From NCBI GenBank assembly GCA_964458565.1, contig CAYWJO010000021.1, positions 1 through 40,569 on the forward strand: a stretch of DNA of 40,569 nt. Direction: 5' to 3'. The DNA comes from an uncultured archaeon. Its GTDB lineage: Archaea > Asgardarchaeota > Thorarchaeia > Thorarchaeales > Thorarchaeaceae. Position 1 is the first letter of the stretch. Each line of letters opens with the position of its first letter. A model generated the notes under the pieces. It saw only the letters and a list, made by a program, of their open reading frames with translations, did no database searches and was not told the DNA's origin. The translations under genes and the position numbers were made by a program. This document shows, in pieces, positions 23,704 to 26,489 of the stretch.

Positions 23704-24300
23704 ATGGATTCTGAAAGGTTCTTAAAACAGATTGCATTCATCACAGAGATTGATAGACTCAAGAAGGTTATACGTCAGACCTCTCTTACGGATGCATCAC
23801 GACGGGAAAATGTAGCTGAACACTCATGGCATATCGCTCTCATGGCAATACTTCTTGCTGAGTATGCAAACGAATCATCTATCAAAATAGGTATAGTTGT
23901 GAAGATGCTTCTTATTCATGACATCGTTGAGATTGACGCTGGGGACACTTTTCTCTACGACGATGAAAATACTGAACTAAAATCTGAGAAGGAACTAAAG
24001 GCAGCAAAACGGATTTTTAGCTTACTACCTCACGACCAAGCTGAAATCTATCTTGCACTGTGGGAGGAATTCGAAGCAGCCATATCTCCTGAGGCTAAAT
24101 TCGCGAAATCCATTGACGCCTTACAGCCAATACTACTTGCCTATCAGAATGAGGGTTGGTCATGGAAGAAACATAAGCTTGAGAAACAACGAGTATTAGA
24201 AAAGAAGGAGTCCATGAAGCATGGATCCCAAGAGCTATGGAAATATACTCAACAACTGCTGGACAAAGCTGAACAACTTGGATTTTTTGAACATGAATGA
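23704..24300 (+). CDS. HD domain phosphohydrolase (YfbR/HDDC2-like 5'-deoxynucleotidase family)
   Basis: ENVAEHSW, LIHDIVEIDAGD, LWEEFE and EAKFAKSID. Confidence 0.88.
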   Translation: MDSERFLKQIAFITEIDRLKKVIRQTSLTDASRRENVAEHSWHIALMAILLAEYANESSIKIGIVVKMLLIHDIVEIDAGDTFLYDDENTELKSEKELKAAKRIFSLLPHDQAEIYLALWEEFEAAISPEAKFAKSIDALQPILLAYQNEGWSWKKHKLEKQRVLEKKESMKHGSQELWKYTQQLLDKAEQLGFFEHE

Positions 24301-24421: not shown

Positions 24422-24718
24422 TTATGTTCTTGCTTGTTCAGTGGATATATAATTCTGGGGGAAATGACGTATGCGATGCTCTACGTCTATTATATCTCTC
24501 ATCTCAGAATTTGAAAGTGGGGGATGCAATGTGAATGGTGTGGTGCCACGAGCCTTTAGTTCATGGTCTATTCTTGATAGATGAACATTGGCTGCGACTA
24601 TTGCATTCAAGAGAGAGATCCGCATAAGATTCAGCTCTGTTTCTGAATGGATCTTTAACCGCTGTGGTAAGATTACACTGAACGAATGCTTCCTTCCTAA
24701 TACCGTTCTTTGTGTCAT
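24422..24718 (-). CDS. Hypothetical protein (98 aa)
   Basis: ATG at 24718 preceded by an AGGTGA RBS, a TTTATAT TATA-like box at 24753-24759 and an adjacent palindrome. No family recognised. Confidence 0.55.
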   Translation of the reverse strand: MTQRTVLGRKHSFSVILPQRLKIHSETELNLMRISLLNAIVAANVHLSRIDHELKARGTTPFTLHPPLSNSEMRDIIDVEHRIRHFPQNYISTEQART

Positions 24719-24760
24719 ATCAATCACCTAAGCTATATATGCACACAAAGCAATATAAAG

Positions 24761-24780
24761 ATGTTGCATTTATGCAACAT
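24761..24780. promoter_or_regulatory. Perfect palindromic operator ATGTTGCAT-TT-ATGCAACAT
   Basis: 9-2-9 inverted repeat immediately upstream of the TATA-like box of the 98-aa ORF. Confidence 0.7.
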
Positions 24781-24815
24781 TTGTTTAAATATAAAATCAA
24801 ACGTTTCCAAGTTGT

Positions 24816-25313
24816 TCAGATTGGTTCAAATACGAACGTACAGTTTTTGTCTCCCTTTGCTTGACAATAAATCTCTTCACACGATAAGCGTGTACCACAA
24901 GATTCCCAGAATACGCCAACAAAGAATCCTGCAAGGAAATGACATACAGGATTCTCTGATTTCCCATATGTTTCTGCAATGAACGATCTAGTGATTGTAA
25001 GATTTGCTACACATACACCATGACTCCTTACTGAATCTAAATCGAACCATCCCACACCTTGAGGTCCATAGAACTCTCCCCATTTAGTGATGAACTTCAT
25101 TTCTCTTTCTTCCCACTCACTTAGAAGTGCTTGAGTCGAACTTTTACCTGCTTCTATCCCTGCCTCGTAGATTAGAGCATCAGAACCTTCACCAACATCA
25201 GATTCTATAGTTTTCTGAATATTGGCAAAAGTTTCTGCACGAATTATTATCATGCGATGATTTTTCATGGCCCATAACGAATGCTCCAGAAATTTCTCAT
25301 TCTTCTCTGACAT
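24816..25313 (-). CDS. V4R domain protein
   Basis: YEAG..AG, G.GWF, PVCHFLAGFFVG and EEIYCQAKGDKNCTF. Confidence 0.88.
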   Translation of the reverse strand: MSEKNEKFLEHSLWAMKNHRMIIIRAETFANIQKTIESDVGEGSDALIYEAGIEAGKSSTQALLSEWEEREMKFITKWGEFYGPQGVGWFDLDSVRSHGVCVANLTITRSFIAETYGKSENPVCHFLAGFFVGVFWESCGTRLSCEEIYCQAKGDKNCTFVFEPI

Positions 25314-25318
25314 TGCTC

Positions 25319-25618
25319 CTATCTCCTCTTTCTTTTCCTCGTTTTCATGTTCAATGATGTAAGTTTCCCATAAAACTCTAGCAAGAGCTTGACTAAATCA
25401 TTATCAGTATTCAGACTATACACATGTGTAACTTTTCCAATCTTATCTTGAGTCACCAGATTCATACCAACCAGAGTTGGAATTGTACGTGTTACACTTC
25501 CTGGGTTTTTGTCGATTCGTCTAGCAATCTCTCTAAGGTTCAAAAGGGTGTCCGGATTCTCCATGAAGAGGTCCAGCACTAAAAGTTGTATTGATGGACC
25601 AAATAGCTCATTAAACAT
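25319..25618 (-). CDS. Winged helix-turn-helix transcriptional regulator
   Basis: LNLREIARRIDKNPGSVTRTIPTLV...IGK...YSLN; ends 5 nt before the V4R gene. Confidence 0.85.
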   Translation of the reverse strand: MFNELFGPSIQLLVLDLFMENPDTLLNLREIARRIDKNPGSVTRTIPTLVGMNLVTQDKIGKVTHVYSLNTDNDLVKLLLEFYGKLTSLNMKTRKRKRR

Positions 25619-25652
25619 TGAGATTCTAAATTATCCTCCCTATATGAATCAT

Positions 25653-25672
25653 TTGTTGCAAATACGAAACAA
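25653..25672. promoter_or_regulatory. Imperfect second copy of the palindromic operator upstream of the wHTH gene
   Basis: TTGTTGCAAATACGAAACAA is 14/20 identical to 24761-24780 with the same spacing. Confidence 0.55.
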
Positions 25673-25898: not shown

Positions 25899-26489
25899 AT
25901 GCGTGACCAAGATGATGGTAGCAAAATCATGAAAGCCGTGCTCATTGGAGACGGTGCCGTTGGTAAAACAAGTATGCGCCGTAACTACTTGGGAGAGGAA
26001 TTCATAGAGGGTCATCTTGCAACTATTGGTGTAGATTTAGCAACAAAGAGAATCGTTTTTGGTGAGGACATCGTTAAATTTGTGCTCTGGGATCTAGCTG
26101 GCCAGCCCTCTTTCAAACAAGTACGAGGTCATTATTACCATGGATCCAATGGGATTATCTTGGTCTATTCTGTCATTGACCGTGATTCATTCGACAATGC
26201 ATCCAAATGGCTTGTTGAAGCGTTCAATAATCTCAAGAAACTTCCTCCAACGATTATTGTAGCTAACAAAATAGACCTTCGTGGAAGTCCGCTTTACACA
26301 CAGCAGGTAAGCCGAGAGGAAGGAGAGGAGTTTGCTACTATCTTCACAGAGCGACTTAATGTTCCTGCCATCTTTATGGAAACCTCAGCGAAGACGGGAG
26401 AAAATATACGGGATGCATTTTCAGCATTGCTCAAGATGATGGAAGAGGAGGACGCAAATCAGGACGAACCAGATATCTATCGTCCCTAA
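25899..26489 (+). CDS. Rab-like small GTPase (Ras superfamily)
   Basis: G1 GDGAVGKTS, G2 TIGVD, G3 WDLAGQ, G4 NKID and G5 ETSAK. RabF-like segments IGVDL, KFVLW, YYHGS and LVYSV. No C-terminal Cys motif. Confidence 0.92.
   Translation: MRDQDDGSKIMKAVLIGDGAVGKTSMRRNYLGEEFIEGHLATIGVDLATKRIVFGEDIVKFVLWDLAGQPSFKQVRGHYYHGSNGIILVYSVIDRDSFDNASKWLVEAFNNLKKLPPTIIVANKIDLRGSPLYTQQVSREEGEEFATIFTERLNVPAIFMETSAKTGENIRDAFSALLKMMEEEDANQDEPDIYRP

Follow-up and report, generated by a model that had tools for sequence, protein, structure and literature searches.

Does a small winged helix-turn-helix (wHTH) protein, encoded directly ahead of a stand-alone V4R-domain protein and accompanied by a perfect palindrome in front of the next gene, represent one sensor-regulator that has been split over two genes? 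This is the question raised by positions 24422 to 25672 of a 40,569-nt stretch of DNA from an uncultured archaeon of the Thorarchaeaceae (contig CAYWJO010000021.1; "the window" below means this whole stretch). We consider it probable that the pair is a split, two-protein sensor-regulator resembling MsvR, which autoregulates, probably by repression, and in which the V4R protein acts in trans. The three minus-strand genes at 24422-25618 were read directly and compared with the open reading frame (ORF) listing; the features on which the argument turns are these:

25653..25672, no strand: candidate operator O2 in the wHTH-V4R promoter, with the core TGTTGCA-AATA-CGAAACA at 25654-25671
25641..25648, minus strand: TTCATATA, TATA-like box for the wHTH-V4R operon; the 5 nt AATGA separate it from the O2 core upstream
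25319..25618, minus strand: wHTH gene, 99 aa, beginning MFNELFGPS and ending in a basic C-terminal tail (ORF and Pfam)
25314..25318, minus strand: the 5-nt spacer between the wHTH and V4R genes, with GAGGAG/AGGAG just upstream of the V4R ATG
24816..25313, minus strand: stand-alone V4R gene, 165 aa, PF02830, with conserved Cys124, Cys150 and Cys158
24786..24799, minus strand: T-rich run GATTTTATATTT between the V4R stop and O1
24761..24780, no strand: candidate operator O1 in the promoter of the 98-aa gene, a perfect 9+2+9 palindrome ATGTTGCAT-TT-ATGCAACAT
24752..24759, minus strand: TTTATATT, TATA box for the 98-aa gene; 2 nt separate it from the O1 core upstream
24422..24718, minus strand: 98-aa gene, with its ATG at 24718 and the Shine-Dalgarno sequence AGGTGA at 24729-24724, 5 nt before the ATG

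A preliminary description of this DNA, made from the letters alone, had placed the wHTH and V4R genes 5 nt apart, and both our reading and the ORF coordinates agree; translational coupling across this spacer is probable, and the orthologous ORFs either overlap or lie 3 nt apart in four loci on metagenomic contigs (L042, L043, L045 and L046). The wHTH protein matches HTH_IclR at 30.7 bits (Pfam, cut-off 22), with weaker matches to MarR and HTH_24; as to membership of the IclR type, its 99 aa carry no C-terminal IclR effector-binding domain in Pfam. No paralogue of it was found elsewhere in the genome at E≤0.01, and it is the presumed DNA-binding subunit. The V4R protein passes the Pfam cut-off of 31 for PF02830 with 57.4 bits (E 1.5e-15, residues 106-164). 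Because the wHTH ATG comes only 30 nt after the start of the TATA-like box TTCATATA, the mRNA of the operon is probably leaderless.

Reading on from the V4R stop toward the 98-aa gene, one meets in turn GATTTTATATTT, the palindrome, 2 nt, TTTATATT, about 22 nt, AGGTGA, 5 nt and the ATG, an arrangement that amounts to a complete archaeal promoter with a Shine-Dalgarno leader, and in which the T-rich run would be a candidate oligo-T terminator of the wHTH-V4R operon. The gene lies 88 nt beyond the V4R gene, and an alternative GTG at 24727 would yield a protein of 101 aa. The earlier placement of a perfect palindrome at 24761-24780, beside the TATA box of a gene with a ribosome-binding site, was confirmed by this reading, and our own count likewise agrees with the 14/20 copy reported at 25653-25672 in front of the wHTH gene (14/20 letters of O2 are identical to O1, and 12/14 core letters, that is, two core mismatches).

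How unusual is such a motif in this genome? With the core taken as TGTTGCA-N4-TGCAACA and expectations derived from base composition, the 3.73-Mb genome should hold 0.016 exact, 0.67 one-mismatch and 13.1 two-mismatch copies; it holds 1, 2 and 22, and the sole exact core is O1. An exact core is missing from all of 60 further genomes that belong to this family or phylum (0/60). The genome scan, which the preliminary description had proposed as a check, thus returned one exact core against 0.016 expected and, in addition, a third promoter site (see below). From the genome frequencies, the 100-nt region ahead of the wHTH gene would contain a core with ≤2 mismatches by chance with a probability of about 4e-4. 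A looser count over the window gave no enrichment at ≤3 mismatches (4 matches against 2.44 expected, a number reached by 26/100 shuffles), and therefore the case rests on the exact copy, its position and its conservation. Four intergenic two-mismatch matches in the genome (C8:29621, C11:76295, C29:3395 and C29:7155) lack the TATA-abutting layout and were not counted. Separately, a 340-nt DNA contig from a salt-marsh run (X4) carries window positions 24752-24785, that is, operator plus TATA, with 1 difference and between unlike flanks; it may come from a further site of the motif elsewhere or in a related organism.

Conservation was followed in V4R relatives from a scan of Joint Genome Institute (JGI) metagenome contigs (27 loci), by tblastn with the three window proteins and by reading of the ORFs and upstream DNA. 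Close V4R relatives are rare: in an index of 5.8 billion proteins there are six clusters, the query among them, with identities to it of 39-72%, and no relative above 35% identity was found in the species-representative genomes among 60 relatives. The V4R orthologues on metagenomic contigs are 36-84% identical. L045 and L059 were counted once, their upstream DNA and wHTH genes being near-identical, and L047 and L048 are partial copies of L046. The orthologous loci, with identities to the window proteins, are as follows:

L043: V4R 69% (N-terminal part), wHTH 78%, GTPase gene divergent; core with 1 mismatch TGTTGCAAATGCGCAACA, then an identical AATGATTCATATAG
L044 (from the metagenome of L043): V4R 84% (C-terminal part); V4R end, T-run, site, 98-aa orthologue (61%) and convergent HD gene in this order
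L042: V4R 49%, wHTH 55%; core with 2 mismatches, followed after 5 nt by TTCAAATATG; 14 nt upstream there is an additional TGTTGCA half-site
L045/L059: V4R 36-42%, wHTH 54%; core with 0 mismatches ATGTTGCATATATGCAACAT, 5 nt before TTTTTATATG
L046: V4R 36%, wHTH 56%; core with 4 mismatches, correctly spaced and followed after 5 nt by TTCATATATAGG; 13 nt upstream there is an additional GTTGCA half-site

In L042, L043, L045, L046 and L059 the V4R gene is immediately preceded by the wHTH orthologue (54-78% identical), so that the pair is kept in 4/4 distinct metagenomic loci in which V4R is at least 36% identical and the upstream side lies on the contig. In three of these four orthologous operons, as in the window, the wHTH gene is preceded by a core (0-2 mismatches) whose distance from the TATA box is constant. 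In L044 the core in front of the 98-aa orthologue (61% identical to the window protein) is exact (TGTTGCACAAATGCAACA) and is followed after 2 nt by the TATA box TTTAAATT and then GGGTG; equivalents of the T-run stand at the aligned place both there (GATTTTTTATT) and at the third site of the genome, on contig C28 (GATTTTAAATT). At 36-55% protein identity, neutral intergenic DNA should retain no such match, judging from the chance of about 4e-4 per 100-nt region. As a control, we took 24 same-sized stand-alone wHTH homologues, found at about 30% identity in a search of 399 further genomes of this phylum: none had a V4R gene within its 3-kb locus, and their best upstream matches to the core had 4-7 mismatches. 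V4R proteins at 30-33% identity, for their part, have no wHTH gene. Since the V4R-less wHTH homologues go without the motif and the distant V4Rs without the wHTH, pair and motif travel together in one small subfamily. The suggestion that synteny and motif be compared upstream of orthologues was therefore rewarded in 3/4 loci (0-2 mismatches) and by the exact site in L044, and the comparative data support, at the level of sequence, the earlier proposal of an autoregulated wHTH that has operators at its own promoter and at that of the 98-aa gene and forms a pair with a stand-alone V4R sensor.

The regulon is larger than the two sites first described. A third site at C28:40924-40941 (TGTTTCATATATGCAACA), with 1 core mismatch, is intergenic: it follows a TrmO-like gene by 130 nt and is itself followed, after 126 nt, by two consecutive genes with Pyr_redox_2 and Fer4 domains (4Fe-4S, HdrA-like). 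It brings the number of sites to at least three. The site lies in a copy of the promoter of the 98-aa gene: C28:40897-41012 aligns with it over 117 nt at 78% identity (blastn against the whole genome, E 1.4e-19) and is the only other genomic copy of that promoter. The alignment spans the T-run, the palindrome, the TATA box and the leader to about the eighth codon, with the ATG changed to AGG, so that the start codon is lost; the TATA box here, TTTAAATT, is 1 nt from the core. Because the flanks align over 117 nt at 78%, an operator-bearing promoter was duplicated to a place before redox genes.

A similar redox theme surrounds the 98-aa protein, which had been called an orphan. This name does not hold, as a profile of eight homologues run against 1.84 billion proteins recovered a small, unnamed family that in most cases is associated with 4Fe-4S proteins and has 37 representative clusters, 31 with E≤1e-10. 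Among six homologues in the genomes of relatives, five are directly upstream of, or fused to, 4Fe-4S dicluster proteins (L008, L009, L010, L012 and L013, the fused one being L010 with 239 aa); the sixth precedes an SCP2 protein. The neighbor in L009 was assigned by eye from its near-identity to that in L008, which was the one scanned for domains. The shared core of about 55 residues consists of an extended stretch ending in L/I-P and then one long helix; the AlphaFold2 model of the window protein has a helix at 26-56 and a disordered tail (mean pLDDT, the predicted local distance difference test, 64.5) and gives no support to a ribbon-helix-helix fold, which had been considered as a candidate. 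The profile and structure searches that the preliminary description had recommended thus succeeded in part: they yielded the family, and neither a Pfam match nor a PDB relative was found for the 98/101-aa protein (best PDB E 0.16, not meaningful), with nothing meaningful in NCBIfam and only the protein itself in a word-index search.

What might the V4R protein sense? Its best NCBIfam match is MsvR (NF053755) at 40 bits, covering profile positions 123-235 of 236, which is the V4R half only. Its best sequence relative of solved structure is MopR (5kbe, E 2.3e-4, V4R residues 19-165 against MopR 41-196), and the protein spans the whole XylR_N+V4R sensor domain, with XylR_N itself matching only at E 0.1 in Pfam. 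A fold search with the low-confidence model of the protein returned MopR, PoxR and DmpR first (TMq 0.62-0.66) and TRAPP subunits second (0.47-0.57). In MopR the fourth zinc ligand is a glutamate, and E147 of the V4R protein aligns with a MopR Glu in the 5kbe alignment. Cys124, Cys150 and Cys158 are invariant in 6/6 members of the V4R subfamily and align with MopR C155, C181 and C189, which are zinc ligands (PMC9556785, in part). Their 26/8 spacing is also that of MaMsvR C206, C232 and C240 (a comparison of spacing and not a residue-level alignment), conserved V4R cysteines whose mutation alters redox-dependent DNA binding (PMC3729527, in part). The cysteine/zinc triad, together with the Fe-S and HdrA theme of the targets, is why the signal points to redox: compared with the hydrophobic ligand first proposed, which the V4R fold allows too, a redox or zinc-thiol signal of the MsvR kind is no less likely.

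From the genes, sites, positions and conservation just described, we infer a wHTH protein that binds the sites, a V4R protein that contacts it, a sign of regulation and a kind of signal, put together as follows. The wHTH protein, presumably as a homodimer, would recognize the 18-bp inverted repeat TGTTGCA-N4-TGCAACA, whose half-site centers are 11 bp apart; by what is established about wHTH dimers, such an inverted repeat suits a winged-helix dimer. The V4R protein, translated from the same probably leaderless mRNA, would sense the signal and act on the wHTH protein in trans, as the conserved and tightly coupled gene order suggests. At three promoters of the genome the candidate operator abuts the TATA box at the TFB-recognition element (BRE), where transcription factor B (TFB) reads, the gaps between operator and TATA being 5 nt in the operon itself, 2 nt at the 98-aa gene and 1 nt at the C28 site before the HdrA-like genes. 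A regulator bound there would most likely block TFB and TATA-binding protein (TBP) and so repress all three promoters, its own included, and repression would be relieved when the state of the V4R protein changes, either by thiol/zinc redox chemistry or by a small hydrophobic ligand. We favor repression because the operator ends 1-5 nt before the TATA box, covering the BRE, and because the MsvR boxes at BRE/TATA are read as blocking TFB/TBP (PMC3729527). A wider version, that in a non-methanogenic Asgard-type archaeon a trans-acting V4R redox or metabolite sensor and a wHTH repressor control the HdrA-like electron-bifurcation genes together with the 98-aa gene, in a regulon that grew by copying of a 117-nt promoter, we put forward only tentatively, as possible and rather doubtful; if true, energy metabolism in Asgard-type archaea would have its first defined circuit of sensor, operator and targets, and there would be evidence of V4R signaling in trans.

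Two neighboring genes enter into the alternatives or complete the setting:

25899-26489, plus strand: gene for a Ras/Rab-like GTPase, divergent to the wHTH-V4R operon (PF00071 at E 6.8e-42)
23704-24300, convergent: HD_3 phosphohydrolase gene (Pfam)

A number of observations weigh against the two-protein repressor as we have drawn it. One-mismatch cores occur at about the chance rate in the 60 other genomes, which lack the wHTH-V4R pair, and for this reason the core motif by itself is not diagnostic; most of the 22 two-mismatch matches in our genome fall inside genes (long ORFs); one half-site of O2 is degenerate; and L046/L047 have only the four-mismatch core and a distant half-site, with no core at ≤2 mismatches found anywhere on L046. 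The 117-nt duplication could have left the C28 site behind as a passive relic, not as a selected target. Confidence in the model of the V4R protein is low (pLDDT 54.6; predicted template-modeling score 0.60), the wHTH protein is unlike the HTH half of MsvR in NCBIfam, and no fused wHTH-V4R protein turned up among the longer proteins searched, which is weak evidence. For transcription of the 98-aa gene there is a weak hint, in that a 279-nt salt-marsh metatranscriptome contig matches 24415-24693 exactly, within the gene body, and is the only contig on a 1651-nt stretch from the one RNA run covered; the contig is strandless and DNA carry-over is possible. Run shares below 0.2 (X7-X9) and stretches that lack RNA cover were not counted as evidence. 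Finally, an operator 1-5 nt upstream of the TATA box is also compatible with activation by recruitment of TFB/TBP.

Activation from the same position is in fact the main alternative to repression: the same two-protein regulator would recruit TFB/TBP at promoters without a good BRE, which we judge possible and on the unlikely side. Archaeal activators such as Ptr2, and TrmBL1 or SurR when bound upstream, act from comparable positions, the operator lies wholly upstream of the TATA box and is centered about 14-18 nt before it, and the one RNA contig falls on the target gene and none on the regulator genes, a weak point in its favor. What tells the other way is the nearness of the core to the TATA box, which leaves the BRE covered, where the boxes of MsvR are taken to be repressive (PMC3729527). 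Alternatively, the wHTH protein may be the sole regulator and sense nothing through V4R; the V4R protein, as a ligand binder or carrier, would then be cargo on the same transcript, its level being a regulated output like that of the 98-aa gene. This we hold to be unlikely. It would account for the stand-alone V4Rs at 30-33% identity that do without a wHTH and sit beside DUF72-like genes (L049-L058, L070-L071) or in a KaiC-type ATPase operon (L017/L018), as well as for the stand-alone wHTH homologues without V4R and the failure to find a fused form; in a speculation of Tran et al. (2024), ligands are bound or carried by the V4R/TRAPPC3 proteins of Asgard archaea (PMC10933270, in part). It would not explain why the order wHTH then V4R, with a 5-nt gap or an overlap, recurs in 4/4 distinct metagenomic loci and the window, and the nearest characterized relatives of the V4R protein (MsvR, MopR, PoxR and DmpR) are sensor modules of transcription factors.

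Two further readings would take the palindromes out of the story. That O1 is an RNA hairpin (a terminator or stabilizer), or that the sites are there by chance or serve as operator of an unlinked factor, seems to us highly improbable. The palindrome does follow the V4R stop by 35 nt and could form an 8-bp stem with a 4-nt loop, then CUUUAUAUU, but its fold is unremarkable (z -1.79; 10/200 shuffles fold as well), the possible terminator T-run precedes it, and an exact core is expected by chance 0.016 times per genome; moreover, the motif also stands upstream of the wHTH between divergent genes (L043, L059), where there is nothing to terminate, and 130 nt downstream of the TrmO-like gene on C28. 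Still harder to credit is that the V4R protein is a TRAPPC3/Bet3-like partner, in a guanine nucleotide exchange factor complex, of the Rab-like GTPase at 25899-26489, with the palindromes unrelated. The GTPase gene and the operon diverge both in the window and in its closest relative L043, V4R and TRAPPC3 share a fold (PMC10933270 and PMC2253512, each in part), and TRAPP subunits are listed by the fold search at TMq 0.47-0.57; yet adjacency to the GTPase is lost in L042, L045/L059 and L046, where adjacency to the wHTH is kept, the protein has no PF04051 match at E≤1, MopR, PoxR and DmpR score above the TRAPP subunits, and a genuine PF04051 TRAPP gene exists elsewhere in the genome, on contig C2.

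We also considered a defense system. In PADLOC the wHTH protein showed no more than a generic similarity (to PDC-M05A, 32 bits, and to the wHTH parts of CARF/Csa3), the V4R and 98-aa proteins matched nothing, and this candidate was set aside. ParA-wHTH-V4R systems have been described (bioRxiv 10.64898/2026.10.19.760177, in part) and do not apply here, because no ParA or effector gene was seen near the locus in the ORF listing and the PADLOC similarity is generic only.

How, then, does the proposed split sensor-regulator compare with known systems? It follows the HTH + V4R logic of MsvR (Methanothermobacter MTH1349, Methanosarcina MA1458), which autoregulates via the BRE/TATA boxes of its own promoter and also controls a neighboring gene (PMC3729527); here, too, the operator is at the operon's own BRE/TATA, in the window and in 3/4 loci, with a different operator sequence. 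In MsvR one polypeptide carries both the HTH (N-terminal) and the V4R domain (C-terminal), whereas here there are two ORFs with a stop and 5 nt between them, and likewise in the orthologues; the MsvR score of 40 bits compares with a curated cut-off of 220, and the wHTH protein is IclR/MarR-like without a match to the MsvR HTH. MsvR has been described, in the part of the literature consulted, as confined to methanogens; McrA was not found in this genome (93% complete), nor was any MsvR above the cut-off. Judged by sequence, the pair appears to work like MsvR without being a member of it. With the NtrC-type regulators MopR, PoxR, DmpR and XylR the V4R protein shares the sensor (A) domain and its Cys3 zinc site; those regulators carry an AAA+ sigma-54 domain and an HTH in the same protein, whereas the V4R protein, at 165 aa, has neither in Pfam. 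Transcription here is of the archaeal TBP/TFB kind, and the sensor, unlike that of the NtrC-type activators, would act in trans on a separate wHTH protein. With the Asgard TRAPPC3-like/V4R proteins (Thor-TRAPPC3, PDB 7YH2; PMC10933270, in part) it has in common the fold superfamily, the zinc site and an origin in GTPase-rich Asgard-type genomes, but the Thor-TRAPPC3 chain is absent among the 20 PDB sequence matches of the V4R protein at E≤1, and the consulted part of PMC10933270 holds no link of such proteins to DNA binding. By these sequence comparisons, the V4R protein is not the Asgard TRAPPC3-like protein, this genome's own being the one on C2.

In the account of Podar et al. (2008), V4R domains are believed to pass signals on to their effectors either in cis or in trans (PMC2253512, in part), and this locus would test that old conjecture for signaling in trans. 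Our literature search found no split wHTH + V4R operon, no instance of this operator and no trans-acting V4R with a defined operator; nor did it find an Asgard-type transcription factor paired with a binding site and target genes. In kind this is an ordinary autoregulated repressor-operator switch, unusually ready for testing in a group with almost no characterized regulators: it offers a short, defined operator, two small, soluble and easily expressed proteins and three candidate target promoters, one of them before HdrA-like genes. What is new here is the third site, the 98-aa family with its 4Fe-4S link, and the zinc/redox cysteine triad of the V4R protein as in MopR and MsvR. The locus also sets regulatory V4R proteins apart from the TRAPPC3-like ones that have been discussed as forerunners of eukaryotic trafficking.

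Some smaller observations concern the relatives of these genes. In L046 (1659-2513; also in L047 and L048), the gene after V4R encodes a metallo-beta-lactamase-fold protein (PF00753, E 8.3e-15) and not a homologue of the 98-aa protein. The nearest V4R relatives among species-representative genomes (L017 and L018, in G048 and G058; 32-35% identity) overlap a KaiC-type ATPase gene and have no wHTH gene before them; the ATPase of L017, the one scanned, matches PF06745 at E 9.4e-35. On contig C2 of our own genome, at about 109684-112072 (L015:160-2548), there is a row of four genes for an HTH protein (137 aa, with a weak TrmB match), a TRAPP-family protein (157 aa, PF04051, E 3.3e-8), an adjacent V4R protein (181 aa, PF02830) and an HVO_0163-type HTH protein (253 aa), so that the TRAPPC3-like gene is flanked by DNA-binding proteins, which is odd for a supposed trafficking component.

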